Shown here: piece by piece, positions 16,830-39,275 of the stretch
How positions within the stretch are numbered: position 1 is the stretch's first letter
Layout: every line of letters begins with the position of its first letter
Virus record (IMG/VR): IMGVR_UViG_3300032562_000016
Strand: one strand, 5' to 3'
Length of the DNA: 64,000 nt
Origin: a virus
The notes under the pieces: model-generated
Database searches by the model: none
Told to the model about the DNA's origin: nothing
Seen by the model: only the letters and a program-made list of their open reading frames with translations
Position numbers and translations under genes: made by a program

Positions 16830-16873
16830 TAATACTTTATGGTGGGACCATTATTACCGTTATAATTGTCCCC
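16830..16873. repeat. Copy A of a perfect 44-bp element (TAATACTTTATGGTGGGACCATTATTACCGTTATAATTGTCCCC); its inverted partner is at 39232-39275.
   Basis: Verified base by base: the reverse complement of 39232-39275 equals 16830-16873. The element contains an internal imperfect hairpin (GGTGGGAC...GTCCCCTC). Confidence 0.9.
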
Positions 16874-16943
16874 CCTAAAAGTTCTAAAAATATACCCCCC
16901 ATGTAATACTTTACGTTTCGATAAGGGGGTGTTTTCCATAAAA

Positions 16944-17645
16944 TCACTCCGATTTGTCGTCAGAATTTTTTATAGGGGGTGGGGTCAAACTTTCTGATGA
17001 CGATAGGGTGTCTGGAATAGTATGTAGGTCGGATAGGGACTCCTGAACGCCAAAAGGGGGTGTGGGGGGTGTCTTGGTCGTCCCGGATAATTCATCGAGC
17101 AGTAGGTCAACTTCCTTAACGTCAACGTCTATTGCTTGGCTCTTTATCATATCTTTAAGCTCCTGCATAATTTTTGATCTAGCATCTGCGCTGTTCGTAA
17201 TATGCGTTACTTCCTTGCGTTCGGTGAATGCCGAGACTTCAGTTACTGTGCCTAGAACTTTGCTTGCGTTGATCTTTGCACTGTGTGAAGCTTCTGGATC
17301 TATGACAACTTGAACTAATGATTGGATAACGAGAGCCCTTAATTGTGCAGGTGTACGATGTTTTTCCGCTTCTATCGCCAGCGAGTAGGCTTCTATTTCC
17401 GCCCTGATTCGTGTATCAGCTTTAAGCTTACTTGCATTATCTCCAATTGTTTTAGGTGTTCCGGTTGCGTTATATGCGTTTCGGTAAGCATCTGCACCGG
17501 TTAAACCGAGAGCGACACCCTTCGCAAAATCTTTTTGTTTTTGGGTTAGTTCGCCGGGAACGTGAAGGATTTGATCTAATGGGATTTGGTTTAATCCTTC
17601 TTTTACTTGTTTACGGCTTAGACGTTTAATTGTTTTAGTATTCAT
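16944..17645 (-). CDS. terS: terminase small subunit candidate
   Basis: 233 aa; N-terminal HTH-like region (TQKQKDFAKGVALGLTGADAYRNAY) resembles the TerS DNA-binding domain. Located directly upstream of TerL. Confidence 0.5.
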   Translation of the reverse strand: MNTKTIKRLSRKQVKEGLNQIPLDQILHVPGELTQKQKDFAKGVALGLTGADAYRNAYNATGTPKTIGDNASKLKADTRIRAEIEAYSLAIEAEKHRTPAQLRALVIQSLVQVVIDPEASHSAKINASKVLGTVTEVSAFTERKEVTHITNSADARSKIMQELKDMIKSQAIDVDVKEVDLLLDELSGTTKTPPTPPFGVQESLSDLHTIPDTLSSSESLTPPPIKNSDDKSE

Positions 17646-17779
17646 ACTTCCCTACTGTCTGAGTTAATGTATTAGACGTGATTATATGGGAACAATCAGA
17701 GAAACTGTATCGCTTCGCTATGAATAAAAGCGCGCGTTAACCAATTAATACTTTGGTTCTAAGGGTTTATAGTAGCAAA

Positions 17780-17825
17780 ATAATTGCTTGAGTAGTTGAG
17801 AAGTGTAGAAAAGTATGATAAGCTA
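17780..17825 (+). promoter_or_regulatory. candidate early promoter region in the divergent intergenic region
   Basis: TTGAGT/TTGAGA and TATGAT hexamers lie upstream of the first early gene. Spacing is not ideal, so the call is tentative. Confidence 0.25.
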
Positions 17826-17878
17826 TGCTTTATCGTGATTAAGCGATACAAAGTAAACCAAACCAAAGGAAATACAAA

Positions 17879-18091
17879 ATGTTATTAAAAGCTAGATTCA
17901 CAATGACAGTAGAAAACTTAGATTTAATCGTTAATCAATATCAGAGTTTAAATGGAAAGGTTAAGTTCTTAACTCAACCTGCATTTAATAGCAATAGTGA
18001 AATCGTAGGCGAACAGAATGAAATTATGTTTTTTATTGGATTTGTTGCAGGACTAGGAGTACATGACTTAGAGCATGTTAATAAAGCTTGA
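17879..18091 (+). CDS. early protein (70 aa)
   Basis: First ORF of a densely packed plus-strand block of small genes; SD AAAGGAAAT before the ATG. Confidence 0.5.
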   Translation: MLLKARFTMTVENLDLIVNQYQSLNGKVKFLTQPAFNSNSEIVGEQNEIMFFIGFVAGLGVHDLEHVNKA

Positions 18092-18104
18092 TAGGTAACT
18101 TTAT

Positions 18105-18133
18105 AAGACTATTCCCGGCGAGTAGTCTTATGA
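18105..18133 (+). promoter_or_regulatory. intercistronic hairpin (ATAAGACTA...TAGTCTTAT, 9-bp stem)
   Basis: Perfect 9-bp inverted repeat seen in the sequence. No U-tract follows, so it is more likely an RNA processing or stability element than a terminator. Confidence 0.35.
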
Positions 18134-18169
18134 GGCATAAGCCTAAAACCCAAAAGGAACTAAAACCAA

Positions 18170-18357
18170 TGCTAACACTATCAACAGAAACTCCACAAAG
18201 CTACTTCACGCCTAAGCAGGCTCAGTTTATTTGTTACCAAAACAATGCGGATGAGTTAGACGGATGGACATATAAAGTAGAAGATGTAAATAACTCTAAG
18301 GGATTAGTAGTAATCCGTGTTTATGACGAAACCGGGCATCCTTTAGGATATTTTTAA
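18170..18357 (+). CDS. early protein (start moved to MLTLSTETPQ...)
   Basis: The track ORF 18088-18357 begins inside the upstream hairpin. The internal ATG at 18170 has an SD (AAAAGGAAC). Confidence 0.45.
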
Positions 18358-18361
18358 TTTA

Positions 18362-18411
18362 GGTTAACTGATGAGACTTTAATAGTCGAAACCGCTCCGG
18401 CGGTCTTAACC
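18362..18411 (+). ncRNA. type-I hammerhead ribozyme; predicted self-cleavage after C18405 (GUC)
   Basis: GGUUAA(stem I)-CUGAUGA-GACU/UUAAU/AGUC(stem II)-GAA-ACCGC/UCCG/GCGGU(stem III)-C-UUAACC(stem I). Every conserved core nucleotide is present, including the G10.1-C11.1 and A15.1-U16.1 pairs. Confidence 0.8.
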
Positions 18412-18431
18412 AAATAAAAGGAAATAAACCA

Positions 18432-18752
18432 ATGAAAGATCATTTATATATTGGCTCAACGCCAACAGATGAGGATTGCGCTCAGGTAGGCTCAGAGAAT
18501 TATGCGAACCGTGCTCGCGCAGAATGTAGACTTTTTGCGATACAGATACTTAAACACTATCCCGAGCCAGAAAAAGGATACTTATCAATAAAGGCTAATT
18601 CGCACGACTTCGGCACTTATTATGAAGTGGTTGCAGTTTATGACGATGAAGATGAGGACTCGACCAATTGGGCATATGACGTAGAAGCGGACGCGCTCAA
18701 CGTTCTATCTAATTGGGATGAAGAACTAAACCCTGCAACTGTTCCCGCCTAA
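18432..18752 (+). CDS. early protein (106 aa, acidic)
   Basis: ORF track; SD AAAAGGAAAT. Confidence 0.5.
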   Translation: MKDHLYIGSTPTDEDCAQVGSENYANRARAECRLFAIQILKHYPEPEKGYLSIKANSHDFGTYYEVVAVYDDEDEDSTNWAYDVEADALNVLSNWDEELNPATVPA

Positions 18753-18803
18753 GGTCTACTGATGAGGCCTAATTGGCCGAAACCCCTTCCCGGGGTATAG
18801 ATC
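18753..18803 (+). ncRNA. type-I hammerhead ribozyme; predicted cleavage after A18797 (GUA)
   Basis: GGUCUA-CUGAUGA-GGCC/UAAUU/GGCC-GAA-ACCCC/UUCCC/GGGGU-A-UAGAUC. All core nucleotides conserved; stem I has one G-U pair. Confidence 0.8.
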
Positions 18804-18824
18804 AACACTAAAGGACTATTAAAA

Positions 18825-19058
18825 ATGTATATTCCAAAAAGAGCTTATAAAGAAATAAACCGGCGACTAGAAGAAGGGCAGACGTACATAGATGCCATTA
18901 AGTACACCGCCTATTCGCACGGACTCGAACCCGTAGAGCTTCGCAAAGCATACGAAACGAGAAGCCACAGACTAGAAGTATTGGACAATTTATCCGTGGC
19001 AATTGGCATGATATTGGTCTTATCTATTCCCGTATCCGCCTTTTTATTTAGGGGTTAA
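18825..19058 (+). CDS. early protein with C-terminal TM segment
   Basis: 77 aa; C-terminal hydrophobic helix AIGMILVLSIPVSAFLF. Confidence 0.45.
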   Translation: MYIPKRAYKEINRRLEEGQTYIDAIKYTAYSHGLEPVELRKAYETRSHRLEVLDNLSVAIGMILVLSIPVSAFLFRG

Positions 19059-19060
19059 TT

Positions 19061-19336
19061 ATGATCGCATACATTAATTCACACGCACAACGAGAAAACG
19101 GAATAAAGGATAGCTTCTTAACTATTTCCGCGCCAGTAAAAAATGAGCCCTTACCGTGGCAACTTTTAGGGCTTCAATTTACCGGCTCGGGTTATGGCTC
19201 GCGCATCCCTACCCAGTACAAGGTGAAATACTTTGGAAAGTGGAGAAGAGTTTATTGCCGCATTTATTCCAATATTGGGACTTTATACATTGGCAAATTA
19301 TCGGATAACTTAATTATCAATATTAATGAGGGATAA
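19061..19336 (+). CDS. early protein
   Basis: 91 aa. Confidence 0.45.
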   Translation: MIAYINSHAQRENGIKDSFLTISAPVKNEPLPWQLLGLQFTGSGYGSRIPTQYKVKYFGKWRRVYCRIYSNIGTLYIGKLSDNLIININEG

Positions 19337-19339
19337 ATT

Positions 19340-19594
19340 ATGCACTGTTTAATTTTTGACCGCTCGGGCGATTTGCTTGCTAACTTTTTGCTAGATGATA
19401 ACGATCCATTAGATTGTGACTATTACGCGGAAAGGTACGGGAACTCGCACGGCGTAGAACTTGAGGGAGAGACACCCGGCGCAATGATACCGGACGGAAC
19501 AGAAGATTTGAGCGTAGTTATCTTAGAAAACCCTGGTAACCGGGTTGTAGTATGGAATTCTCACAATTACATGATTAAACAAGAGGAGTATTAA
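19340..19594 (+). CDS. early protein
   Basis: 84 aa, acidic. Confidence 0.45.
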   Translation: MHCLIFDRSGDLLANFLLDDNDPLDCDYYAERYGNSHGVELEGETPGAMIPDGTEDLSVVILENPGNRVVVWNSHNYMIKQEEY

Positions 19595-19596
19595 AA

Positions 19597-19899
19597 ATGA
19601 AGACTTATAAATTTTACGAGGATAGCGGGCACGGTTGGCTAAAGGTTACATTTAATGAACTGCTAGCCCTAGGTATCGCCGATCAAATTAGCCACTACTC
19701 ATACATTAAACCCAGTAAGGACGGCCAAACGCTTAATTGTTACTTAGAGGAAGATTGTGATTATTCAGTATTTGAGCGAGCAATGCAATCCCGAGGCATG
19801 CAATGGAAGGTTAAATCCTACCGCTCCGAGCGCTCCGCAATTCGTAATTATGACAGTTATTCTCGCGTAATCAAAACCATATCAACTCAAGGAGCATAA
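19597..19899 (+). CDS. early protein
   Basis: 100 aa. Confidence 0.45.
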   Translation: MKTYKFYEDSGHGWLKVTFNELLALGIADQISHYSYIKPSKDGQTLNCYLEEDCDYSVFERAMQSRGMQWKVKSYRSERSAIRNYDSYSRVIKTISTQGA

Positions 19900-19902
19900 A
19901 CC

Positions 19903-20349
19903 ATGAAAAACCAAATTATTAACGCGCTTTACACCTTCGCCAACAAACGACCAGGGCTAGAACCCCGCGACTATATTAGAAGTTGGGACGATAGCGAAGG
20001 CCGGGCAACATACCGCGCAGAATCCAGGAATATAACCAAAGACCTAAACCATGCCCGCGCACTACTTCGCCGGCTCGAACTCTCAGGAATCACCGCCGAG
20101 GAAATAATCGAGGCATCAAAAGAGGCATTCTCCGGGCGTTTAAGTATTTCAGTAACAAATGACGGGATTGTTAAAGTGTCCTATTGTGTTGGGCAATACT
20201 TCCCTACTGAGTACAGAAAGGCAGTTGCTAGCGTATGCGCTCGCGCATTATGGAGCTACTGGCGCGAAGATTCAAAAACCGCCGATAGTATTAGACAACT
20301 CGCCCGCCGTGAATTTCCCCGTGCTATCGCTCGCGCTTACTTTAATTAA
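19903..20349 (+). CDS. early protein
   Basis: 148 aa, largest gene of the early block. Confidence 0.45.
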   Translation: MKNQIINALYTFANKRPGLEPRDYIRSWDDSEGRATYRAESRNITKDLNHARALLRRLELSGITAEEIIEASKEAFSGRLSISVTNDGIVKVSYCVGQYFPTEYRKAVASVCARALWSYWREDSKTADSIRQLARREFPRAIARAYFN

Positions 20350-20358
20350 GGTCTAAAA

Positions 20359-20550
20359 ATGAACAATCCAATTATTGCTTATCATAAAAAATCAGAGCTT
20401 CGCGGTTGGTCTGAGGTATGCCGTGATTCTATATATTGGGAAGGTTGGCACGAATTCGACCGATCAATGATAGAAGAGCTTCTTAAATCAGGGGAAGAGG
20501 TAATAACCTGCGGTTGGAATATGTACCAAGTAATTAAGGAGGCCAAATAA
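20359..20550 (+). CDS. early protein
   Basis: 63 aa. Confidence 0.4.
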   Translation: MNNPIIAYHKKSELRGWSEVCRDSIYWEGWHEFDRSMIEELLKSGEEVITCGWNMYQVIKEAK

Positions 20551-21329
20551 TGTACAAAATAATTGAAAAGAATAACCCGCTCGCCGTGCACTGTATTTGT
20601 GACACCCTAGAACGCGCCGAGTACTGGATTAAACAAACCGCCCCGGAATATTGCTTAAAGGGTTATTTTATGGATAAGACCTTGACCCCGGAAAGCTTCA
20701 CAATTAAAAAGGGTTAAACAATGTACACCGTAACCTATAAAGACACAAACGGCGGACTGTTCGGCGATTCTATGGAAACGCGGACATTCTCTAACTACCA
20801 AAGTGCCCGAGTATTCGCCCGGGTAAAAAAGGGAACTATTACAAGGGTTAAACCATGAAAGAGATTATCGAAAACCTTTTAAGAATTCAAGAACTATTAA
20901 ACGATCCGGAAGCGGATGATTACTTCACCCATAACGAAATCGACAGACTACTAACCCAAACGCTAGAAAAACTAAAGGCTAACCAATGAGAAAAATTAAG
21001 ATTGAATTAACTATTGAAATAAAAGAACATGATTCCTACGGATGCCAAAGCAATGCAGACTGGGTTTATAACACTATTGAGGAGCAATTAGACCCCGGAG
21101 AATCAATAATTGATTACAAAATAACAGACGAAAAATCAGATATTACAGAAGAGGCTAATTAATGAAAACACTATTTCACGATCAACTACACGCGCACCGC
21201 ACCGCTCGCCGGGCTCAGAAAAACGAACCCGATCATAGATTTATTGTCGATCAAGTTATTTGGGGAACTAATCCGGCCTGGATTATCTACCGATTAGACT
21301 CCGCCGGGCGAATAATTGGCCGTCTCTAA
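20550..21329 (+). other. Run of five sub-60-aa, translationally coupled early ORFs: 20550-20717, 20721-20858, 20855-20989, 20986-21161 and 21162-21329.
   Basis: Manual translation. Each has an ATG preceded by an SD. Stops and starts overlap as TAATG, ATGA or TGATG, and there is no gap between consecutive ORFs. Confidence 0.4.
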
Positions 21330-21370
21330 AATTCACGCCTGAGTCAGGCTTACTAAAAAAGGAATTAACA

Positions 21371-21565
21371 ATGAAAAAATTTATAGTGTATATGGTTCGA
21401 GTTGAGCACATTATTTACCCCATAAATGTAGAGGCAGAAGATCAGGAGGAAGCGGAAGAACTGGCGCGCAAAAAATGGGATGACGGGGATTTTAATTCAA
21501 AAGGAGAGGTTGTATACGGAGAAGAATTTATAAACCAAGTAGACGAAATAATGGATGAAAAATGA
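21371..21565 (+). CDS. early protein
   Basis: 64 aa, acidic. Confidence 0.4.
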   Translation: MKKFIVYMVRVEHIIYPINVEAEDQEEAEELARKKWDDGDFNSKGEVVYGEEFINQVDEIMDEK

Positions 21566-21882
21566 AATACACAATAATTACAGGTAACCCAGTGGACGGA
21601 TTTAGGTCGATAGGTATATTTGATAGTAGCGAAGATGCAGTCGCGCACGGAGATATGCAGAGATTATTCCACGACTATTCAATTATGGAGATTGATGAAA
21701 TAGAAAAACACACGACTGTTACGCGCAATGAAATGATTCAGGCTTTGATTGATCGAACGCTAGAAAAATGGAATAGTAACGACCAAAAAACCGCGTTTTT
21801 ATCTAGTTTTCTCAGAAATGGGTATGCAGGATTAGAAAAATTAAGTGATGATGAATTGATCGAAAGGTATAACCAATTATGA
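21562..21882 (+). CDS. early protein
   Basis: 106 aa. Confidence 0.45.
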   Translation: MKYTIITGNPVDGFRSIGIFDSSEDAVAHGDMQRLFHDYSIMEIDEIEKHTTVTRNEMIQALIDRTLEKWNSNDQKTAFLSSFLRNGYAGLEKLSDDELIERYNQL

Positions 21883-22157
21883 ACGACTTACAACGCGCAA
21901 TACTTAAAAAAGTATTAGAAAAAGGATACACCCTAAACCCGATGGAATATTGCCCGGACGGACACTATACCGATTATGATGAGTGGGACTCGGTTAACCT
22001 GGGCGATGGATTTGAATTTGATATTAACTTTTATAGTGATGGACAATATTTTTATATTACCGCCTACGATTTAATTCAAACCGACTCAGGAATGATGACC
22101 AGAAACAATCAGAGTTTTTTCCATTTAATCAAAATGCCAATAGTGGAGGTAGTATGA
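21879..22157 (+). CDS. early protein
   Basis: 92 aa. Confidence 0.45.
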   Translation: MNDLQRAILKKVLEKGYTLNPMEYCPDGHYTDYDEWDSVNLGDGFEFDINFYSDGQYFYITAYDLIQTDSGMMTRNNQSFFHLIKMPIVEVV

Positions 22158-22303
22158 CAGTAGCAGAACTAATTCAAGAGCTTTTAAAAGTGGACGATAT
22201 AACCAAACAGGTATATACATTCAATGACCACGAACTACGCCCGGTAACAATGGTAGACGAACTATCAGACCGGGTAGATATAAACCTGGGAGACATATTA
22301 TGA
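22154..22303 (+). CDS. early small protein (49 aa, below cutoff)
   Basis: ATGA overlaps at both ends. Confidence 0.35.
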   Translation: MTVAELIQELLKVDDITKQVYTFNDHELRPVTMVDELSDRVDINLGDIL

Positions 22304-22506
22304 GGCTAACTAAAAGAGATATCATTGAAAATTCAATTATCTACGAATGGGAGTGGCTACAAGAACGCGCCCAGGATGACCCAAAGGTCTACGAGGATGC
22401 AATTAAGACTATGCTCCGTTACGGGTTTATTGGTTACGAAAAAATGGATAACGATTCCCTGATAAATAAAGCGATTGACACCGGACAACTAATGGAAGAT
22501 TTATAA
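22300..22506 (+). CDS. early protein
   Basis: 68 aa. Confidence 0.4.
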   Translation: MRLTKRDIIENSIIYEWEWLQERAQDDPKVYEDAIKTMLRYGFIGYEKMDNDSLINKAIDTGQLMEDL

Positions 22507-22527
22507 ATAAATCATACAATTATTCGC

Positions 22528-27185: not shown

Positions 27186-27971
27186 TTAAGCCTTTTTAAG
27201 CTGACGTTGATACCTCGCTATCGTCTTCTTAAGCTGAGCATTCTCCGACTGGAATGTATCCCTGCTCTTTGTTACGGCCTTGAGCTCGATCTTTAATTGC
27301 TTAATCTCATCTCTTAACTCTTGGATTGTTTCTTCTGCAAGCTTTGGATCTGGTGCGGATACGGTTGCCAGTTGATCGGATAGCTTCTCGTTTTGCTCCA
27401 TTAAATAATCTATTGTTTCTTGATCTTTGTTATGGACTGGGGCTACTTCTACCTTTGGCTCTACTTTGGTTTCTTTGGTAGACCTGGTGCGCTCGTACTC
27501 TTGCCCATCTTTGGTCTTAACCGTTATGCTCTTAGGTGCTGTTCCGGCTTTGTTCCTGATCTTGCTGACATACGGCTGAGATACGCCACAATGCCTAGCT
27601 ATCTCTGTATCTGTCCAGTCTGACCACTCAAAATCTTCCACCATCTTCTGGGCGTTCTTGCACCGCTCGGCGCGAGTAGGGGGCTTACCGTGAGCATTAT
27701 TGGCATTCATGCCCTTTAGCTCTGCATCCCTCTGAGTTCCAGTTAAGACCTCTGCGTTTATGTATTCCTCTCCGTTCCTAAGTGAAGCATGGATACGGTG
27801 AAATCCATCTGCTGGCCATACATCTGTTCCATCGTGGAAAACAATAATAGGAGGAAATATAGTACCGTCTGCCATTGCTTCGGCATATTGGGTAACTGTC
27901 TCCTGGTCAAGTGCTCGGGATTGTGTGTTGCCATCCATGCGGATAGCTGAAATTAGTACGTCTTTAATCAT
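27186..27971 (-). CDS. ParB-like nuclease domain protein with C-terminal coiled coil
   Basis: N-terminus IFPPIIVFHDGTDVWPADGFHRIHAS matches the ParB/Srx fold signature; HTH-like middle; coiled-coil tail. Confidence 0.65.
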   Translation of the reverse strand: MIKDVLISAIRMDGNTQSRALDQETVTQYAEAMADGTIFPPIIVFHDGTDVWPADGFHRIHASLRNGEEYINAEVLTGTQRDAELKGMNANNAHGKPPTRAERCKNAQKMVEDFEWSDWTDTEIARHCGVSQPYVSKIRNKAGTAPKSITVKTKDGQEYERTRSTKETKVEPKVEVAPVHNKDQETIDYLMEQNEKLSDQLATVSAPDPKLAEETIQELRDEIKQLKIELKAVTKSRDTFQSENAQLKKTIARYQRQLKKA

Positions 27972-32162: not shown

Positions 32163-32435
32163 ATGAAACATATCCACGCAGACTTAATACATGCTTGGGC
32201 AGATGGTGCTCAGATTCAACGGAAAAGAAATAATGAAGATTGGGATGATGCTCCTTATCCAATTTGGGATGAAAATACTGAATACAGAATAAAACCAGAA
32301 TCTAAATCAGATTATGTTAGATATCTTGAAATGCCTATGTTTTGGGGATATGTCGAAAGAAGACCAGAATCAAATATGAAAGTTGTATTTGATGGCGAAA
32401 CAGGCGATCTTAAATCAGCGGAGGTGCTTAAATGA
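32163..32435 (+). CDS. hypothetical protein (start moved to MKHIHADL...)
   Basis: The track ORF starts at 32070. The ATG at 32163 has an SD (AAGGAACT). Confidence 0.4.
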   Translation: MKHIHADLIHAWADGAQIQRKRNNEDWDDAPYPIWDENTEYRIKPESKSDYVRYLEMPMFWGYVERRPESNMKVVFDGETGDLKSAEVLK

Positions 32436-33307
32436 AATTAACAAATAAATTTGGCTTGCCAGAAACCATAGTAAACGTCTTAAAGCGCCCCACCTATTCC
32501 AAAGGTAAGGCTCATATATCTGCAACTGAGCTCATAAACTCACCAAAGATCGTACAGCTTAAAAGAATGTATTGGGACGAGCTGGAGGAGGATGCAAGCT
32601 CTATGGTCTGGTCTTTGTTTGGATCTGCTGTTCATAACATCCTAGAGCACGGTAAAGCGGATAACCATATCGTAGAAGAAAGAGTACACGTTACCCATGA
32701 TGGATGGAACATATCCGGAGCAGTAGATCTTCAGGAAGTATACGAAGACGGAATAGTTATTAACGACTATAAAACTACTACCGCCTGGGCAGTTCAAAAC
32801 GACAAGCCGGAATGGGAAGAACAGCTAAACATCTATGCCTGGTTATTACAGAAAGCCAAGAATAAACCCGTCAAAAAGCTTCGTATTGTGGCCATAGTGC
32901 GCGATTGGAGCTCAAGGGAGGCCAGTACCAAGGAAAGCTATCCACAAGCCCCCATCGTGATCCTAGACCAGACCTTATGGCCTTTTGAGCGGGCAGAGTT
33001 ATTTATAGACGAGAAGTTAAAGTTACACGGCGAAGCTTATTTTGAATCTGAGACAGACGGAGATCTACCGGACTGTACGCCAGAGGAGATGTGGGAGAAG
33101 CCAAGTAAATATGCTGTTATGAAAGATGGTGGATTAAGAGCAAAAAGCGTACACGACACTTTAGAAGAAGCTCAAAAAGCACTGCCGGAGAAGGGGTATT
33201 CCATTGAATGCAGGCCCGGAGAAAGAACAAGATGTAAATCTTATTGTCAAGTATCAAAATTTTGTAATCAATATAAAGAATACATTAAAAATAATAGCGA
33301 TCTTTAA
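32432..33307 (+). CDS. PD-(D/E)XK nuclease with C-terminal Cys cluster (Cas4/RecB-like exonuclease)
   Basis: VDLQEV...IVINDYKTTT (D..E.K core) and the C-terminal C...CKSYCQVSKFC cysteine cluster typical of Cas4/AddB-type nucleases. Neighbours an ERF annealing protein. Confidence 0.5.
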   Translation: MKLTNKFGLPETIVNVLKRPTYSKGKAHISATELINSPKIVQLKRMYWDELEEDASSMVWSLFGSAVHNILEHGKADNHIVEERVHVTHDGWNISGAVDLQEVYEDGIVINDYKTTTAWAVQNDKPEWEEQLNIYAWLLQKAKNKPVKKLRIVAIVRDWSSREASTKESYPQAPIVILDQTLWPFERAELFIDEKLKLHGEAYFESETDGDLPDCTPEEMWEKPSKYAVMKDGGLRAKSVHDTLEEAQKALPEKGYSIECRPGERTRCKSYCQVSKFCNQYKEYIKNNSDL

Positions 33308-33310
33308 TAT

Positions 33311-33835
33311 GTGGGAATTTGTGATATTATTCCCACATTTAAAGGGGAAATAATGAACATATCTCAAGAATATTTAAAAGAAGTTTTTATATATAAAGAT
33401 GGAGTTCTTTTTTGGAATGTTGATAAAAGAAAAATGAAGATTGGAGAAAAAGCAGGTAGAACAAAAAAAAATGGATATTGTGAAATTAGATTAAATGGAA
33501 AACTTTATGGCACTCATAGATTAATTTTTTTAATGTTTCATGGATATCTTCCAAAAATTATTGATCATATTGACGGGAACCCTTCAAACAATTTAATTTC
33601 AAACTTAAGAAGCGCAACTCATGCAGAGAACATGAGAAATTCAAAAAAACCAATTAATAACAAATCAGGATTTAAAGGAGTTTATTTCAACAAAGAAACA
33701 AAAAAATGGATAGCTCAATGCGTTGTTAATAATAAAAAACATCATATAGGAAGCTACGAAGACATTCATGAAGCCGCAAATGCAATTATGAGTTTTAGAA
33801 ATAAAAACCATAAAAATTTTGCAAAACACAATTAA
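33311..33835 (+). CDS. HNH homing endonuclease with AP2-like DNA-binding domain (probable start at 33353)
   Basis: GYCEIRLNGKLYGTHRLIFLMFHGYLP...IDHIDGNPSNN (HNH_3) followed by KGVYFNKETKKWIAQC...HHIGSYEDIHEAANA (AP2-like). Confidence 0.7.
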   Translation: MGICDIIPTFKGEIMNISQEYLKEVFIYKDGVLFWNVDKRKMKIGEKAGRTKKNGYCEIRLNGKLYGTHRLIFLMFHGYLPKIIDHIDGNPSNNLISNLRSATHAENMRNSKKPINNKSGFKGVYFNKETKKWIAQCVVNNKKHHIGSYEDIHEAANAIMSFRNKNHKNFAKHN

Positions 33836-33862
33836 ACAATTTCAACAATACAAGGAACAAAA

Positions 33863-34780
33863 ATGATCTTATTTTTTATTGCGATTTTTCTATTAATCAT
33901 TCCAATTGGCATTGGATATGCTCTTCATTTTAATTATTTAGACAGTATAAAAACTCAAAATACATTTAAGAGCGGAGATAGCAAGATACCCGAACCAGTA
34001 TTTAAGCCAACAATACCGGTTATTGCGGGCTTAGTTTTAATGCTCATATATATTTGTCTTGAGTCCTACGTTATCGTACCTGCTGGCCATATCGGCATTC
34101 AGGTTACGTTTGGTACGGTCAATCAGGCAACACTTGGAGAAGGATTACATTTTGTAAATCCATTATCTAGCGTACAGAACCTGGACGTTCGTTTGGTATC
34201 AGCCAAGCTTGTAGGATCAGCGGCGGGTACTAAAGATCTACAGCAAGTACATACCGATATCGTTGTGAACTACCGTATATCCGGCGATAAAGCGGCTCAT
34301 ATCTACAAAGAGTTTGGCCTGGATCTTCAGGATAAAGTAGTTATGCCCTTTGTTAACGAGTCCTTTAAAGCCATTACCGCGCACTACACCAGCGAGGAAT
34401 TAATTACCAAGCGGGACGAAGTATCAGCAGGAATTAAGCAGGAGCTCTCAGACAAACTGGGAAAGTACAACATAGTTGTGAGCGATATTTCTTTGGTGAA
34501 TTTCGGTTTCTCTGCCGAATACCAAAAGGCTATTGAGGCAAAGGTAATAGCAACCCAGAGCAAGCTCCAGGCCGAACAAGATCTACAAAGGATTGAGGTA
34601 GAAGCCAAGCAAACCATTGCTAAGGCGGAAGGTCATGCTAAAGCTATCCAGATCGAAACAGCGGCTATCAACTCCCAGGGCGGACAGTCATACGTTCAGT
34701 TAAAAGCCATTGAGCGTTGGGACGGGAAGATGCCACAAACTATTGCCGGAGGCGCGACACCGTTCGTGAATTTGAAATGA
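33863..34780 (+). CDS. SPFH/band-7 (prohibitin/HflC-like) membrane protein
   Basis: N-terminal TM helices, then a typical SPFH core (IQVTFGTVNQATLGEGLHFVNPL...IVVNYRI...) and a coiled-coil C-terminus. Confidence 0.75.
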   Translation: MILFFIAIFLLIIPIGIGYALHFNYLDSIKTQNTFKSGDSKIPEPVFKPTIPVIAGLVLMLIYICLESYVIVPAGHIGIQVTFGTVNQATLGEGLHFVNPLSSVQNLDVRLVSAKLVGSAAGTKDLQQVHTDIVVNYRISGDKAAHIYKEFGLDLQDKVVMPFVNESFKAITAHYTSEELITKRDEVSAGIKQELSDKLGKYNIVVSDISLVNFGFSAEYQKAIEAKVIATQSKLQAEQDLQRIEVEAKQTIAKAEGHAKAIQIETAAINSQGGQSYVQLKAIERWDGKMPQTIAGGATPFVNLK

Positions 34781-35124
34781 TTGAAGATCGTGAAGATGCA
34801 TATGAAGACCTTATGAAGTTCTTGGAAGAAGGAGAGTCCGTTGAGGGAATAGTCTTTGGAGAGTACGGATGGGGCGGGTACGGAGAAAAAGAAAATCACA
34901 AAGTTCAAAAGAAAAACCAAGGAAAACTAATGACATTGGCTGAGGCAGAGCCACTGATGCATGGTTGGACTTTCTACGGAGGCTACGGAGCACCTGAATG
35001 CAATGCGATCTATGTATGGACAAATAAAAGGATTATTTGGGTAACTCAGTACGATGGTTCTACCACCTTGGATTCCGCTCCACGAGATCCAATTGACTGT
35101 ATACCTGATATGCCAGGCGGATAA
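34777..35124 (+). CDS. hypothetical protein (start re-assigned; ATGA overlap with SPFH stop)
   Basis: Track ORF 34717-35124 overlaps the SPFH gene. The ATG at 34777 overlaps the TGA at 34778-34780. Confidence 0.4.
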   Translation: MIEDREDAYEDLMKFLEEGESVEGIVFGEYGWGGYGEKENHKVQKKNQGKLMTLAEAEPLMHGWTFYGGYGAPECNAIYVWTNKRIIWVTQYDGSTTLDSAPRDPIDCIPDMPGG

Positions 35125-35142
35125 TTAACAAAGGAAAACAAA

Positions 35143-35859
35143 ATGACAGTATTTAAAAAACTACAAAAAGCACGAGCAGAAATAGCTCACAAGCCACTCA
35201 AGAAATCCGGCAAGAACAAGTTTGCAGGATATGAGTACTTTGAATTGGGAGACTTCATACCCACTGCTCACGACATATTCGAGAGTCTTGGATTGTGCGG
35301 AGTATTCAATATCAACTATGAAACTGCTACGCTTTGCATCCACGATGTTGAAAGCGGGGAAGTGGTTCAGTTCTCCTCCCCAACAGTAATGGCAGAGAAC
35401 GCTAAAGTTCAGGCTATCCAATCAATGGGATCAACCCACACCTACTATCGCCGTTACCTTTGGTTAATGGCCTTAGAGCTTACCGAGCACGATACGGTAG
35501 ATTCATCCGATCCAGGAGAAAAGAAATCAGAGCCAAAGCCAAAAGCTGAAGCTCCAGTTGTTAAAGAATCAGTTGATCCAAAGACCGGAGAGATCAAGCC
35601 TCCAGTAAATATTGAGGGCGAGAAGAAGGAATGGAACTTTAAGGTCACAGCAGAGCCAGGAGCATCTGTAGACGGATGGATTCAGATCGTCAAAGACGCC
35701 GCCGAAATAATGCTCAGCGCAGCACAGTCCAGGACTGACGTAACAACTATATTCACAACCAATAGGAATATATTCAACAAACTTAAAGAGCTGAGCGCGC
35801 AAGAGCATACAGCTTTGATGGACACATTTAAATCTAAGAAAGAATCATTTAAGGAGTAA
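35143..35859 (+). CDS. erf: ERF-family single-strand annealing protein
   Basis: N-terminus KLQKARAEIAHKPLKKSGKNKFAGYEYFELGDFIPTAHDIF matches the ERF superfamily N-terminal core. Low-complexity acidic/Pro C-terminal half. Confidence 0.6.
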   Translation: MTVFKKLQKARAEIAHKPLKKSGKNKFAGYEYFELGDFIPTAHDIFESLGLCGVFNINYETATLCIHDVESGEVVQFSSPTVMAENAKVQAIQSMGSTHTYYRRYLWLMALELTEHDTVDSSDPGEKKSEPKPKAEAPVVKESVDPKTGEIKPPVNIEGEKKEWNFKVTAEPGASVDGWIQIVKDAAEIMLSAAQSRTDVTTIFTTNRNIFNKLKELSAQEHTALMDTFKSKKESFKE

Positions 35860-35862
35860 AAC

Positions 35863-36156
35863 ATGGCTAATCAATATCCAAACAGCGGGCGTTTATCAAC
35901 AAACAAATACAAGGAAATAGGCGATAAAAAGCCTGATCTAGTAGGCGATATCACAATGACCAGAGAAGCCCTTAAAGGCCTATTAGACGAGCATCCAGAT
36001 GACGAAATAGTTATCAAGCTATCCGCCTGGAATATGAGCGGTAACTATGGTCCTTGGGTTCGTTTAGCCTGGAATAACTATAAGCCAAAGACTGATGCGG
36101 CTCCAGTACAGAAGGCTATTCCAATAGACCCACTAGACGATTCGATACCATTTTGA
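35863..36156 (+). CDS. hypothetical protein
   Basis: 97 aa. Confidence 0.4.
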   Translation: MANQYPNSGRLSTNKYKEIGDKKPDLVGDITMTREALKGLLDEHPDDEIVIKLSAWNMSGNYGPWVRLAWNNYKPKTDAAPVQKAIPIDPLDDSIPF

Positions 36157-36575
36157 TGGACACCATTCAATATGAGGCGGTAAAGGTAGCATTAAAGCAG
36201 GATAAAACCGGCTTTATGCTGACCTTAAACATACATCCGGACGAGATACCAAATGACTTAATTCGTGACTTCGTGGGGGCGCGGTATCAGGTTGTTATGG
36301 TACGTCTTGACGGGAATAATCAACCAATGGATCGCAAGGAGAACTTTAGAGATCCGGTTAAGTTAGCCGTTTTGCTTTGCAAAGATCCCGATTTTTCCAA
36401 GTTTCTTTACGAGACTTCTCAAAGCTTAGAAAAGGAAATGACGGAGGAGGACTTAACCAATTGGTTAAAGCTTGAACTCAATATCACGTCCAGAGCAGAT
36501 CTAAAGAACGATGCAGAGGCTACTCGGCATTTATACACAATTAATCAGGAATTTAAAGCATGGAAACAAATCTAA
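36153..36575 (+). CDS. hypothetical protein
   Basis: 140 aa. Confidence 0.4.
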   Translation: MMDTIQYEAVKVALKQDKTGFMLTLNIHPDEIPNDLIRDFVGARYQVVMVRLDGNNQPMDRKENFRDPVKLAVLLCKDPDFSKFLYETSQSLEKEMTEEDLTNWLKLELNITSRADLKNDAEATRHLYTINQEFKAWKQI

Positions 36576-36865
36576 TCCCGTACTCGGTTTACCTGAGCTC
36601 GGAAATACATAAAAAATTAAAGGAGGCGGCGGAAGATAGAAAAGCTTCTGGAATAGTTAGAGATGCTATTAACGCCTATTTTGAAAATACGGACGCGATG
36701 AACACAGGATACAACAGTGCAATAGGAGATGTAATTGACATTATCGCCAAGGACAAACTGGTATCTGGGCTAACTATCAATAGCAAAGAAGTCGATATGC
36801 AGTTGATCAATAAAATCTTAAAACTTAAAAGGAAAGAAAATGGCAAGAAAAAAAGAGGGGCTTGA
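36560..36865 (+). CDS. ribbon-helix-helix (CopG/Arc-like) DNA-binding protein
   Basis: YSVYLSSEIHKKLKEAAEDRKASGIVRDAINAYF is a beta-strand plus two helices (RHH signature). Confidence 0.55.
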   Translation: METNLIPYSVYLSSEIHKKLKEAAEDRKASGIVRDAINAYFENTDAMNTGYNSAIGDVIDIIAKDKLVSGLTINSKEVDMQLINKILKLKRKENGKKKRGA

Positions 36866-37043
36866 ACTGCTCCAGGCAAAACAAGATCCCATATCTATCG
36901 AGAAGATTACCATGCTTGACTGGTACGCCGCACAAGCTATTAAACACGTTCAGCTCAGCGAGATGGAGAGAAGTGCAAAACTTATCTTTGACTTTGCTGA
37001 GGCTTGCCTGAACGAGCGGACAAAAAGGATTGGGAATGACTAA
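36840..37043 (+). CDS. hypothetical small protein
   Basis: 67 aa. Confidence 0.35.
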   Translation: MARKKEGLELLQAKQDPISIEKITMLDWYAAQAIKHVQLSEMERSAKLIFDFAEACLNERTKRIGND

Positions 37044-37404
37044 TGAAGAATTAATGCAGTTGATGACTGATATGGATTTGCATGAAGGTGGTATGGAAAA
37101 CTGGGTTCTTGATAATGCTTGGTTGCGGGTGGCTAATGCAGTTGAAGAAAAAGAACGTGAGCGTATAAAAAAACAGAACGCACCCGAGATTGAAAAGACT
37201 AATGCTTACATAAAACAACTAGAGCTAGAAAAGATGGAGTCTGACATTTTGCACAATGAGCACCTAAAACTGTTGGGCGAAATTAAAGCTATGACAGAAG
37301 CATCGAGATCGGCTGAACGTGAGGTGATTCTTGATTTGGTTGACGGTTACGCAAAAAACAACACAGACCTAGTTGAGGCAATTCAAGCAAGGGGACAAGA
37401 ATGA
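37030..37404 (+). CDS. coiled-coil protein ending ...EAIQARGQE*
   Basis: 124 aa; the 3' end is the conserved junction GCAAGGGGACAAGAATGA. Confidence 0.45.
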   Translation: MGMTNEELMQLMTDMDLHEGGMENWVLDNAWLRVANAVEEKERERIKKQNAPEIEKTNAYIKQLELEKMESDILHNEHLKLLGEIKAMTEASRSAEREVILDLVDGYAKNNTDLVEAIQARGQE

Positions 37405-37562
37405 AGATTAGGGTATGGCGCAGACAGATGACCAGAAGGGACACAGGTTTTGTAAGATCATTGGATAGGTTGATGGATCTAATGGCATATCACTCGAATA
37501 AACTTTCAAAGACGTTACAAGATGTTTATACAAATTCTTTACGAGCAAGGGGACAAGAATGA
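37401..37562 (+). CDS. small protein (53 aa, below cutoff) ending ...SLRARGQE*
   Basis: Manual translation MKIRVWRRQMTRRDTGFVRSLDRLMDLMAYHSNKLSKTLQDVYTNSLRARGQE. Both ends use the conserved ATGA junction. Confidence 0.4.
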   Translation: MKIRVWRRQMTRRDTGFVRSLDRLMDLMAYHSNKLSKTLQDVYTNSLRARGQE

Positions 37563-37789
37563 ATAAAATAATTGCACTAAGAGAAGGAATGGCAACTGTT
37601 GGGGATAACGCTTTAGAGTACATGGATGAATGGAAATCGGAAATGATTACTAGCTCCAAAGTTGTGATTATTTTTAGCGATGAGGCAGGTGCTTATAACA
37701 CCTATTCTGTTAACTGCAATATGGCTGAAGCGATTGGTTATTCGACACTTGCGCAAGAGATGTTGCTTAATCAGATAAGACCACAATGA
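37559..37789 (+). CDS. hypothetical small protein
   Basis: 76 aa; starts in the conserved junction. Confidence 0.4.
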   Translation: MNKIIALREGMATVGDNALEYMDEWKSEMITSSKVVIIFSDEAGAYNTYSVNCNMAEAIGYSTLAQEMLLNQIRPQ

Positions 37790-38091
37790 ATAAAGAAGAA
37801 ATAATTGAAGTTGCTATACAGGCGGGAATTAAGCATAGGACAGATGAATTTTATTCAGAATTTTGTGATGGCGTTTATTTCGATGACCTTATAACCTTTG
37901 CCAAACTAATAGCAGAAAAAGAACGTGCGTCAAATCATGCATACATTTATGAATTGGAACGTGATCTAGAGGTGGCGCAAGACAAGATTAACGATTGTCT
38001 TGTATGTCTTAACTTTAACCCTTTAGAGGCGGCGCAAGATAAGATTAAAGGTTGTCTTGGAATTCTAAACTATAACCCAAGGGGTAAATAA
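37786..38091 (+). CDS. small protein, paralog of 38424-38642, with internal tandem duplication
   Basis: Shares TFAKLIAEKERE with the downstream paralog. Internal duplication AQDKINDCLVCLNFNP/AQDKIKGCLGILNYNP is a roughly 57-nt DNA tandem repeat at about 37960-38075. Confidence 0.45.
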   Translation: MNKEEIIEVAIQAGIKHRTDEFYSEFCDGVYFDDLITFAKLIAEKERASNHAYIYELERDLEVAQDKINDCLVCLNFNPLEAAQDKIKGCLGILNYNPRGK

Positions 38092-38273
38092 TGGGTGATA
38101 TGGCTGAAGTGTGGAAAGATTGGAAAGAATACAAAAAGGAACGTAAAGATCGTTTAGGGATGCCATGCCCTGATTGCACCATTCGCTTACCAAAGGCTCA
38201 GCCAAAGATTCTCATGCCAAATCAGAAGTGTTGGTGTGGTTATGTTGATAAAAGAAAGAGGGGACAAGAATGA
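38091..38273 (+). CDS. Cys-containing small protein ending ...KRKRGQE*
   Basis: 60 aa; CPDC...C. The 3' end is the conserved junction variant AGAGGGGACAAGAATGA. Confidence 0.4.
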   Translation: MGDMAEVWKDWKEYKKERKDRLGMPCPDCTIRLPKAQPKILMPNQKCWCGYVDKRKRGQE

Positions 38274-38431
38274 ATTTTAATCAAGGTAAATTAGCTGAAG
38301 GTCTTGTTGATGAAGTATTACAAATAATTCACAATTATGACGATACCCTTTACATGGCAACCGTAATTGGATGTTTGGAGTTGGTGAAGCAACAGTTAAT
38401 TAATGATGCTATGGAGGAAGATAATGACTAA
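38270..38431 (+). CDS. small protein (53 aa, below cutoff)
   Basis: Manual translation MNFNQGKLAEGLVDEVLQIIHNYDD...; starts in the conserved junction. Confidence 0.35.
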   Translation: MNFNQGKLAEGLVDEVLQIIHNYDDTLYMATVIGCLELVKQQLINDAMEEDND

Positions 38432-38642
38432 AGAAGAAGAAATAATTGAAATTGCTAGACATGCAGACCGAGAATGGGATTGCGACAGAGATATGTTTGA
38501 ATGGCTTGAAACTTTTGCCAAACTAATAGCAGAAAAAGAACGTGAGGAATGTGCAAAGGTGTGTGATGCGTATGACAACGGTAGATATTCAAATGCCGCA
38601 GATTTGTGCGCTGAAGCAATCAGAGCAAGGGGACAAGAATGA
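38424..38642 (+). CDS. small protein ending ...EAIRARGQE* (paralog of 37786-38091; MTKEE start)
   Basis: The track ORF starts at 38403; the ATG at 38424 has GGAGG upstream. The 3' end is the conserved junction. Confidence 0.45.
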   Translation: MTKEEEIIEIARHADREWDCDRDMFEWLETFAKLIAEKEREECAKVCDAYDNGRYSNAADLCAEAIRARGQE

Positions 38643-38881
38643 TTAAGCTAACCTACGAACATATTTGTGACGGATGCAAGAAAACGCTTGATACAGAAGT
38701 TTATGAATGCAGTGACTATCCTGGAATGGAATTTCCAAAAACACACAGAATGTTTTCATTTCATTGGCGAGGATTAAATGCTCAGCTTTGCAAAGATTGT
38801 GCGGCTCCTTTGTATGAAGCACAAGAGCAAACTATGAAAATAATTATTGCTAATAGGGATCAAGACATTTTGATAAATTAA
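38639..38881 (+). CDS. Cys-rich small protein
   Basis: 80 aa; CDGC...C...C. Confidence 0.4.
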   Translation: MIKLTYEHICDGCKKTLDTEVYECSDYPGMEFPKTHRMFSFHWRGLNAQLCKDCAAPLYEAQEQTMKIIIANRDQDILIN

Positions 38882-38911
38882 CTGACGAAGAAAACGTTAT
38901 ATTTTTATACT

Positions 38912-39196
38912 TTGATAGGAAAAGAATTCTTGAACAACAAACTATCCGCGAAAGAAAGACAGTATGTAGGGTTAGTTAAAAGCTTACCCTGCTCCGTCTG
39001 TGACGCGCCAGGCCCTTCAGATGCTCATCACGTTAAACAACATAGACAATACACCGTTGTTGCTTTGTGCAGAGATTGTCATACAGGATATAATGGATGG
39101 CATGGAACCAAAGCATTTTGGCGAATACGTAAGCTAGATGAATTGGATGCTCTTAATATAACCATTGAAAGAATGGTTGAATTACTTAAATCTTAA
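38912..39196 (+). CDS. small HNH-like zinc-binding protein
   Basis: CSVCDAPGPSDAHHV...CRDCHTGYNGWHG has His/Cys spacing reminiscent of small phage HNH nucleases. Confidence 0.35.
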   Translation: MIGKEFLNNKLSAKERQYVGLVKSLPCSVCDAPGPSDAHHVKQHRQYTVVALCRDCHTGYNGWHGTKAFWRIRKLDELDALNITIERMVELLKS

Positions 39197-39231
39197 ATAC
39201 TACATTTACTTTAAATATTAATACTTATAGA

Positions 39232-39275
39232 GGGGACAATTATAACGGTAATAATGGTCCCACCATAAAGTATTA
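39232..39275. repeat. Copy B of the perfect 44-bp inverted repeat (partner at 16830-16873). It overlaps the stop codon of the 2125-aa gene.
   Basis: Exact reverse-complement identity to 16830-16873, verified base by base. Confidence 0.9.

Follow-up and report, generated by a model that had tools for sequence, protein, structure and literature searches.

Copies of a perfect 44-nt inverted repeat in a phage genome as candidate operators of a small winged-helix protein

The described systems closest to the locus discussed here are LexA with its SOS box and the repressor–operator pairs of phages. The resemblance takes in a winged-helix (wHTH) domain of the same LexA type, a palindrome lying across the 5' end of the gene that encodes the protein, identical sites elsewhere in the genome that form a small regulon, and a site sequence that changes along with the recognition helix. 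There the likeness ends. LexA has an S24 peptidase/dimerization domain at its C terminus, which our protein, 106 aa in total, does without; one of our sites, placed where two genes converge at their ends, has no promoter to repress; and the SOS box is shorter than the palindromes here (29–58 bp), whose arms co-vary even when the protein stays constant. Another parallel comes from Bacillus subtilis RTP, a small dimeric winged-helix protein whose gene has a Ter site within its promoter area and is autoregulated through it, with more Ter sites elsewhere in opposed orientations (PMC10331603). As in RTP–Ter (and Tus–Ter of Escherichia coli), our locus combines a small wHTH protein, one site at the gene for that protein and another far off, usually in inverted orientation, where polymerases would collide. 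Those systems serve a chromosome terminus, however, whereas ours belongs to a phage genome in which orientation is not conserved, and RTP was not among the structure-search matches to our protein at E values up to 1. A further parallel is the protein roadblock (LacI, CodY, CcpA), in which a DNA-bound protein, inside a transcription unit or at its end, takes the place of an intrinsic terminator, as may happen here by analogy, and which is strengthened by looping between two sites (PMC10310618). Phage repressors that have been tested are mostly weak transcriptional roadblocks (PMC10310618), which counts against a roadblock here.

The window, by which we mean the whole 64,000-nt stretch of viral DNA analyzed, contains TAATACTTTATGGTGGGACCATTATTACCGTTATAATTGTCCCC at 16830–16873 on the plus strand (copy A) and its reverse complement at 39232–39275 (copy B, minus strand), with 0 mismatches. 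The perfect 44-bp inverted repeat pair of the original prediction is thus exact; it is also unique, there being no further match at three or fewer mismatches in the window, and two matches arose in 0 of 100 shuffles. Independent metagenome contigs of the same phage hold each copy with several kb of identical flanks on each side (copy A in L232, copy B in L228), which excludes an assembly artifact as the source of the repeat. The inverted repeat is in fact longer than 44 nt, extending to 58 nt at 93% identity (16830–16887 versus 39218–39275). In the extended copy A, to which no strand is assigned, the far arm is CCTAAAAGTTCTAA, a conserved 'AGAACTTTTAG' leader that is present in other lineages; the extended copy B, found by repeat search and folding, is a quasi-palindrome, TTAATACTTATAGA-GGGGAC...GTCCCAC-CATAAAGTATTA. 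Each 44-nt copy is itself an imperfect palindrome, which is why A and B also match as direct repeats at 77%. The 14-bp arms, GGGACAATTATAAC and GTAATAATGGTCCC, differ by two mismatches (16844–16872 in copy A, around a single central base; 39233–39261 in copy B), and the outer arms of each copy are TAATACTT(T)AT and ATAAAGTATTA. Additional outer-arm motifs occur on the plus strand near both copies: TAATACTTTA at 16904–16913, in the loop of a C-run/G-run hairpin, and TAATACTTTCTG at 39293–39304, within the 3' end of a gene for a 2125-aa protein.

Copy A ends, as predicted, 2 nt 5' of the wHTH start codon (ATG 16827–16825, minus strand). The gene (16507–16827, minus strand) is the first of a wHTH–TerL–portal operon and encodes our candidate trans factor, a 106-aa protein whose residues 32–96 form a DNA-binding domain of the LexA type. 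It matches PF01726 (33.6 bits against a cut-off of 23.7), the LexA structure 3k2z (E 2.8e-4) and the N terminus of TIGR00498, and its predicted structure, a low-confidence model, has wHTH topology. Directly upstream of copy A is a 233-aa TerS-like gene (16944–17645, minus strand; a weak match to phrog_51, E 2.6e-6); every A-type locus has a homologue of this gene ahead of its A site. Between the two, at 16886–16931 on the minus strand, the C-run/G-run hairpin is followed by GGGGGGTATATTTTT; the combination occurs once in the window, is kept in relatives, and may be either the TerS terminator or a –10-like promoter element of the late operon.

Copy B takes up the space between the late operon and the exonuclease/Erf/HNH operon, which converge on it. 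Its overlap with a stop codon is borne out: the first triplet of copy B is the TAA (39275–39273, minus strand) of the 2125-aa virion protein, which has an LPD38 domain and is encoded by the last gene of the late block (39273–45650, minus strand). Converging on copy B from the other side is the last gene of the plus-strand exonuclease/Erf block, a 94-aa HNH-like gene with a C-terminal CxxCH motif (38912–39196, plus strand; phrog_1588 and, weakly, phrog_96), and a homologue adjoins the B site in relatives. The exonuclease (32432–33307) and the Erf-like single-strand annealing protein (35143–35859, plus strand) are plausible machinery for gene conversion between copies A and B. Searches of the two copies gave neither a canonical intrinsic terminator at A or B nor any terminator-like site at B, and no Rfam family at either. 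Two of the earlier suggestions survive, the first broadly, on position, and the second in part. As regulatory or terminator elements at late-operon boundaries, the copies are in the right positions (A at the head, B at the end, at a convergent junction) but do not include a canonical intrinsic terminator; as a reused 5'-UTR or promoter element, A lies in the wHTH leader and B has part of a flank resembling it, yet no gene stands downstream for B to drive. The repeats do bracket the early/replication module, with the TerS-like gene inside the bracketed segment, although on a circular or concatemeric map the late structural operon, from the wHTH gene to the 2125-aa gene, is bracketed equally.

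Uncultured phage relatives, which make up a large clade, have palindromes at the same two positions, with sequences that are wholly different between lineages and match between A and B within a genome. The pairing recurs in four further lineages, and a fifth has its second copy upstream of replication genes. Lineage 2 has TAGAAATGATTAATGATTTCTA in three copies at A and one at B (both sites in three contigs), lineage 4 has TAGAAAAATTAAAAGTTTTCTA in three to four copies at A and one at B (both sites in two contigs), and lineage 5 has GAGAACCGAAACGTTTTGGTTCTC at 21 A loci and 10 B loci (both sites in one contig); a 93% relative has the element at A and B alike. Lineage 3 has an exact 18-mer at the wHTH start and a second copy of it ~23 nt ahead of the RBS of a replication-operon gene, an operator-like position; the operon downstream contains a ParB-like gene. 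In more than 100 loci the A site either overlaps the wHTH start codon or adjoins it, and the sequence common to A and B in relatives is only ~22 nt. At least one lineage 2 phage (L089) has no B palindrome, so B is dispensable there. That A and B have a lineage-specific sequence in common argues for a trans factor with sequence specificity over a generic hairpin. Their relative orientation, inverted in lineages 1, 2 and 5 and direct in lineage 4, is as expected of a symmetric dimer site. Within the arms, double changes that keep the symmetry number 66 cells, against 22±4 in shuffles, and the covariation score reaches 0.72, slid controls giving no more than 0.22. There are almost no G·T pairs, their frequency being no higher than that of other mismatches, and this, together with the symmetric covariation, favors duplex DNA over RNA.

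On balance, and judging from these sequence comparisons, A and B are probably cognate operators of one sequence-specific, two-fold-symmetric phage DNA-binding protein, likeliest the wHTH protein, with A autoregulatory and B a roadblock or insulator. At A, at the head of the late operon, the wHTH protein would, when bound, cover the leader of its own gene together with the translation start, thereby autoregulating it and/or gating read-through from the TerS-like gene. At B, the bound protein would act as a roadblock or insulator, perhaps strengthened by A–B looping, that keeps each convergent unit from antisense transcription into the other. The natural roadblocks known to us are host regulators within operons, and we know of no phage site lying over the stops of convergent genes. 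The perfect identity over 44 nt, unusual in its length, would come from recent gene conversion, by the phage Erf/exonuclease system or by template switching, and the inverted orientation would be incidental. The window's copies are alike at 56/63 positions, against 48–49/63 for a relative's copies, and have in common two derived asymmetric positions that the relative does not have, which indicates concerted evolution.

The recognition-helix classes of the wHTH protein follow the palindrome classes, a correlation that, like the adjacency of gene and site, is confounded by shared phylogeny. The helix GSTSHMVDR pairs with GGGAC..GTCCC sites, SNTSKIIKR with TAGAAA-N10-TTTCTA sites, and GNTKxIVDR mostly with AACGTT-centered sites; lineages 2 and 4 have helix and outer half-sites in common and differ in the inner bases. 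Two observations sit less easily with operators of the wHTH protein. Under near-identical wHTH proteins (for example L037 and L038, and the two sites in L028), the palindrome arms differ and are still self-complementary, so not all of the symmetry is being read by the protein as sequence; this suggests a structural requirement (hairpin or cruciform) or templated quasi-palindrome correction. In the AACGTT class the invariant part is the 6-bp center only, which leaves too little room for two wHTH domains to sit on duplex DNA, and this counts against the wHTH protein as the binder.

The element might instead act in RNA, though we consider this unlikely. The copies would then be transcript hairpins: at A, a 5'-UTR hairpin occluding the wHTH start; at B, a 3'-end stabilizer, a factor-dependent terminator or an RNase III-type site. 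Long hairpins do fold at both copies (z-scores –1.7 to –3.0), the start codon lies within an arm in several lineages, the arms co-vary while the protein is unchanged, and CUUUUUC follows copy B on the plus strand. Moreover, in lineages 1, 2 and 5, A in the wHTH sense equals B in the HNH sense, so both operons would yield identical RNA, which a lineage-specific RNA-binding factor might recognize much as lambda N does boxB. Lambda has two such phage-specific hairpins, in nutL and nutR, inverted, on different operons and co-varying with the phage protein, and our locus is alike in these respects. The nut sites, however, are RNA near operon 5' ends, recognized by an arginine-rich peptide, whereas one of our copies stands at a 3' end, the neighboring protein has a DNA-binding fold, and orientation varies (it is direct in lineage 4). 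Nor is wobble favored: G·U pairs are not enriched among non-Watson–Crick cells, and imperfect copies depart from symmetry by A·G, A·A, G·G or C·C mismatches, with no wobble pair among them. The three or four tandem A copies of lineages 2 and 4 are typical of protein–DNA rather than RNA-processing sites, and the U-tract, unaccompanied by a terminator call or Rfam match, is absent in relatives.

Less likely again is that the same sites serve another binder in a parS-like or other role, the candidates being the TerS-like protein, encoded next to A, and the ParB-like one (261 aa; 27186–27971). The parS and KorB sites are short palindromes, few in copies and scattered; the TerS-like gene is always directly 5' of the A site, and the second site of lineage 3 precedes the operon of the ParB-like gene. 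Yet it is the start of the wHTH gene, and not of the others, that the site overlaps or adjoins in every lineage, and the correlation of helix class with site class was seen for the wHTH protein, for which alone it was computed.

The wHTH protein might instead work in packaging, like lambda Nu1 on cosB-like repeats, binding the repeats before its own gene and TerL and so starting packaging, with the HNH protein encoded beside B taking part in cutting. We regard this as improbable. The A site does lie between the TerS-like and wHTH–TerL genes, lineages 2 and 4 have three to four tandem repeats directly 5' of the wHTH gene, TerL and the wHTH gene are closely linked, with 6 nt separating them in relatives, and the HNH gene abuts B. 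But unit-length packaging would have no use for an identical second site at a distance of 20 kb, whichever way round it lies, the second site of lineage 3 is upstream of replication genes, the wHTH protein is too small for the oligomerization and TerL-binding parts of a small terminase, and a separate TerS-like gene exists.

That homologous exchange (Erf/RecA) between A and B as crossover sites inverts the 22.4-kb segment is very improbable, and the original prediction is not upheld on this point. Perfect inverted homology over 44 nt, an Erf-like annealase and an exonuclease encoded between the copies, and concerted evolution, by which A and B exchanged sequence at least once, speak for it. 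A flipped isomer would read HNH–site–wHTH–TerL in one direction, and HNH-associated terminase modules have a similar gene order. Against this, all of ~65 junction loci in four lineages are parental (recombinant junctions, 0), seven of them metagenome loci from the window's own lineage; B-junction gene order is kept in ~40 contigs at 45–90% identity; the relatives' copies have only ~22 nt in common; and those of lineage 4 are direct. Short inverted repeats also surround a DNA segment in Hin/hix and Gin/gix, but here the segment contains essential genes, the assemblies hold no flipped isomers, and no invertase gene is present, the 112 ORFs having no serine or tyrosine recombinase domain, as had been anticipated. 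Least probable of all is an iteron-type replication origin or control, with the wHTH protein as a Rep-like initiator, tandem repeats that serve as iterons, and handcuffing through the remote copy: the 22-bp tandem repeats beside the wHTH gene in lineages 2 and 4 and a weak match of the protein to the replication-initiator family phrog_270 (E 6.8e-4) are set against a single wHTH of only 106 aa, one copy at A in the window's lineage, a locus that belongs to the packaging operon and is distant from the helicase/primase module, and sites that are palindromes rather than directional iterons.

The exact 44-bp inverted repeat of the original prediction stands. Its two copies lie at 16830-16873 (copy A) and, reverse-complemented, at 39232-39275 (copy B), with no third copy in the window at three or fewer mismatches, and none of the shuffled sequences contained two matches to it. 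Similarity between A and B reaches 58 nt at 93%. Each copy is in itself an imperfect palindrome, in which the inner arms, GGGACAATTATAAC and GTAATAATGGTCCC, have two mismatches and one central base and are flanked by outer arms, TAATACTT(T)AT and ATAAAGTATTA. The repeat is no assembly artefact, because A and B of the same phage recur on two independent metagenome contigs (loci L232 and L228, respectively), each in the same flanks over kilobases.

Along the minus strand, a TerS-like gene (16944-17645) is followed by a C-run/G-run hairpin and then GGGGGGTATATTTTT (16886-16931), copy A, the gene for a 106-aa LexA-type winged-helix protein (wHTH, 16507..16827), TerL, portal and the structural genes. 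The wHTH ATG lies 2 nt past the end of copy A, and in more than 100 related loci the palindrome overlaps or abuts the wHTH start; apart from wHTH, no gene is in contact with a site in every case. The protein matches the LexA DNA-binding domain (PF01726; 33.6 bits, cut-off 23.7) and the LexA structure 3k2z (E 2.8e-4), and a low-confidence model predicts a helix-helix-helix-wing topology (single-sequence AlphaFold, pLDDT 58, left out of our fold searches). LexA proper has a C-terminal S24 self-cleavage and dimerisation domain, which the 106-aa wHTH lacks; the match to TIGR00498 takes in only profile positions 2-65 of 203 (30 bits, cut-off 111). The C-run...G-run hairpin with its GGGGGGTATAT(A/T)TTT tail occurs once in the window and is kept across many lineages (upstream regions of loci L007-L081), in some of which the tail is A-rich instead of T-rich. 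It could be a TerS terminator, a -10-like late promoter, or both.

Copy B occupies the gap between the plus-strand HNH-like gene (94 aa, ending at 39196) and the minus-strand gene for a 2125-aa LPD38 virion protein (the giant gene, 39273..45650), whose TAA stop is the first triplet of the copy. The flanking genes thus converge on B. Neither a terminator-like nor a promoter-like site was called at copy B, consensus promoter and terminator scans gave nothing at either copy, and Rfam 15 returned no match around A and B at E up to 1. The stems of both copies are A+U-rich at the base, without the G+C-rich stem and U-tract of an intrinsic terminator; the sole U5 run, on the plus strand after B, consists of Lys codons and is missing in relatives.

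Searched with megablast, GenBank phages gave no match to either repeat region, and papers on this phage group mention neither repeats nor regulators nor HNH genes. Judged by TerL, the closest relatives in culture (~50-57% identity) are HTVC023P-type pelagiphages together with some podophages, freshwater or cyanobacterial, none with the wHTH gene. Neither the wHTH gene nor the element is present in the cultured TerL relatives 023Pt_psg01 and HTVC027P, so no functional annotation could be gained from them. The marine 023Pt_psg01 has a different long palindrome, ACATCTAGTGTGTAGGC/GCCTACACACTATG, upstream of TerL (locus L153, ~3205-3245), and repeated GGGCCCACCCACCCC motifs lie upstream of TerL there as well.

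Uncultured relatives in IMG/VR that carry wHTH together with the giant gene number in the hundreds. Only the window's own small clade has the exact core of its element, and palindromes occupy positions A and B (the wHTH start and the giant gene-HNH junction) in many lineages, A and B being alike within a genome. In lineage 1b, which contains the 93% relative, A is a perfect palindrome, GGGACAATTATAAC-G-GTTATAATTGTCCC, and B is a copy with a decayed arm. Lineage 2 has three copies of TAGAAATGATTAATGATTTCTA at A, the last over the wHTH ATG, and its reverse complement at B, running from the giant gene's TAG; three contigs carry both positions. Lineage 4 has three or four copies of TAGAAAAATTAAAAGTTTTCTA at A and one at B, direct rather than inverted, with both positions on two contigs. 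In lineage 5, GAGAACCGAAACGTTTTGGTTCTC marks 21 loci of type A and 10 of type B, with both positions on one contig, and B is still at the convergent junction where an extra gene precedes the HNH gene. Lineage 3 differs in its second site: AATGGCAACGTTGCCATT lies over the wHTH start and again ~23 nt upstream of a ribosome-binding site (three contigs), and the gene behind that site heads a series of ParB-like, helicase and primase genes. These palindromes match within a genome and have lineage-specific sequences. Neither a particular sequence nor inverted orientation is the conserved feature; what the lineages have in common is a palindrome of their own in at least two copies, with one copy at the wHTH gene.

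In lineages 2 and 4 (L088, L167, L253 and similar loci) both convergent genes stop on the outer triplets of the B site, TAG...CTA, and nothing but the 22-nt palindrome separates them. Locus L089 (~5470-5500, contig 3300027782_002618) has no B palindrome, its giant and HNH genes nearly touching, and this phage still has lineage-2 palindromes at A (L156); at least one close relative can thus dispense with B. The lineage-3 18-mer has a third exact match at 7618-7635 of L199 (contig 3300025732_000002), within a structural-gene coding region, where it reads I-N-G-N-V-A-I-G. Either chance placed it there, in a gene of repetitive, fibre-like character, or it is one more putative binding site.

We aligned wHTH proteins (71 distinct sequences) alongside the palindromes upstream of their genes. 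Three recognition-helix classes match three site classes, a signal confounded by common descent. The helix GSTSHMVDR pairs with GGGAC...GTCCC; SNTSKIIKR pairs with TAGAAA-N10-TTTCTA, lineages 2 and 4 sharing this helix and the outer half-sites and differing in the inner part; and GNTKxIVDR mostly pairs with AACGTT-centred sites. With that reservation, the match fits an operator/regulator pair. A second signal makes matters less simple. The 22 distinct sites of the AACGTT class preserve ~7 bp of symmetry between their arms via double changes: 66 double-change cells against 22±4 in shuffles, and a covariation score of 0.72 that falls to 0.22 or less once partners are slid. Phages whose wHTH proteins are near-identical have arms that differ and are still self-complementary; therefore self-complementarity as such seems to be maintained. 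G·T pairs are as rare as other mismatches, and imperfect copies mismatch as A·G, A·A, G·G or C·C, which argues for symmetry held at the DNA level rather than in an RNA stem. The site may also act as a hairpin or cruciform, or its quasi-palindromes may be subject to templated correction.

Taken as a whole, the comparison supports a boundary or regulatory element: a putative repressor/operator pair, possibly a roadblock, in a large uncultured phage clade. Of the original prediction's boundary hairpins, a narrower form survives, namely lineage-matched palindromes at the head and the end of the late operon; no terminator-like site was called at A or B. Of the marks of an autoregulated repressor with a LexA-type DNA-binding domain, both the domain and a palindrome at the regulator's own 5' end are present, and the co-variation of site and helix is confounded by phylogeny. 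We propose that a wHTH dimer would occupy both A and B. At A, where the late operon begins, it would cover the leader and start of the wHTH gene itself, and so might autoregulate, gate read-through from the TerS-like gene, or both. At B, bound wHTH would stop polymerases arriving from either convergent operon, and in lineage 3 the equivalent second site would switch off the replication operon. The roadblock is the weakest step of this mechanism. Many phage repressors are poor roadblocks, and two-site looping strengthens roadblocks (PMC10310618). Were this reading right, a widespread clade of uncultured freshwater podophages, kin to HTVC023P-type pelagiphages, would part its transcription modules with one small wHTH protein and two or three matched palindromes, and one site on the stop codons of convergent genes would replace a terminator. 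It would be a compact, readily testable case of protein-dependent insulation in a virus, and would supply natural orthogonal protein/site pairs, at least five specificities having been seen.

The closest architectural parallel to wHTH with A and B is RTP-Ter of Bacillus subtilis. RTP is a small dimeric winged-helix protein, autoregulated via one Ter site at the gene that encodes it, and other Ter sites lie elsewhere in opposed orientation (PMC10331603). This positional pattern, a site at the protein's own gene and a remote opposed one, fits lineages 1, 2 and 5 and does not fit lineage 4, and no RTP or Tus chain was among the PDB matches to wHTH at E up to 1. Of the two sites, one is at the wHTH gene, at the head of the ~42-kb late operon, and the other exactly at the operon's end, facing the convergent operon. 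We think it unlikely that wHTH and its paired sites form a phage barrier system of this kind, blocking RNA polymerases and/or replication forks, perhaps looping the operon ends, and insulating late genes from the early/replication module. To our knowledge, no dedicated, co-evolving, protein-dependent bidirectional terminator or insulator has been described in phages.

As in Hin/Gin/Cin inversion systems and shufflons, short inverted repeats (here 44 nt, exact) flank a segment, and the original prediction took them as possible crossover sites. There were no recombinant junctions among ~65 A- or B-type loci, in assemblies that give the majority form only. Flanks are parental throughout lineages 2 (13 A, 3 B), 4 (5 A, 6 B) and 5 (21 A, 10 B) and at the lineage-1 loci from viral and metagenome collections; TerS/giant or HNH/wHTH junctions were seen at none of the loci of these four lineages. 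The order of the giant gene, convergent HNH gene and recombination block holds in ~40 contigs, down to 45% identity. The inverted arrangement itself is not conserved in relatives: the copies are direct in lineage 4 (two contigs), so the same exchange there would delete, not invert. Whether copy B is flipped between the window and the 93% relative is ambiguous, because the element is quasi-palindromic. A Pfam scan of the 112 window ORFs matched 31 families, and the 25 of them that were listed include neither Resolvase nor Recombinase nor Phage_integrase, in line with the earlier remark that no recombinase gene is obvious. Rare flipping is conceivable, given that assemblies yield the majority form, and is not the conserved function; the inversion reading is not supported, which corrects the attractive idea of a 22-kb invertible segment.

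Two observations led us to reject linkage to the HNH gene, as a mobile HNH with its target or a cos site: in lineage 3 no HNH gene adjoins the second site, and B keeps its place at the stop of the giant gene despite a gene inserted before HNH. Lambda-type cosB/small-terminase sites are repeated at one locus by the terminase genes and the cut site, whereas here a second identical site lies 20-22 kb off, and in lineage 3 it is upstream of replication genes. A generic class of intergenic hairpins is dismissed, there being no other comparable local palindromes in the window and the core occurring only at A and B.

The identity of the window's copies is a matter of its own. A and B share 44 identical nt in the window against ~22-23 nt in relatives; the 44 nt include two asymmetric positions that are derived when set against the 93% clade. 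A and B agree at 56/63 positions, more than the 48-49/63 of the 93% relative. This indicates concerted evolution. Since Erf and exonuclease genes are encoded, one copy may plausibly have converted the other in the recent past. Just 5' of the wHTH ATG, AAAGTATTAATA (16828-16841, minus strand) would code K-V-L-I, resembling the N-terminal K-[VI]-L-I-N codons of relatives' wHTH proteins, a likeness that hints, speculatively, at A as the conversion donor. A second KLLIN lies 13 codons into the present gene, which suggests a small duplication at the wHTH 5' end, the outer arm of the repeat being a coding-sequence relic.

Early genes lie between the copies, and among the larger ORFs there PHROGs assigned a primase, a helicase, a ParB-like protein, an exonuclease, a free-standing HNH and an Erf-like annealase. 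Across the window, the Pfam scan matched endonuclease VII, ERF and a PD-(D/E)XK nuclease. The genome's nuclease genes (33311-33835 and other ORFs) comprise the free-standing HNH, a GIY-YIG domain, endonuclease VII and the PD-(D/E)XK exonuclease. Cruciforms are a substrate of endonuclease VII, and a long palindrome of the kind seen at A and B would have to stay unextruded or be protected. Four small plus-strand genes at 37374-38648 have AGGGGACAAGAATGA as their common ribosome-binding/start sequence, and in some of them internal stretches of 30-40 nt are 90-93% identical; they look like a tandem paralogue family. At 62317-62932, a 51-nt periodic repeat (17 codons) runs within a minus-strand gene of 543 aa, which probably encodes a repetitive fibre or collar protein.
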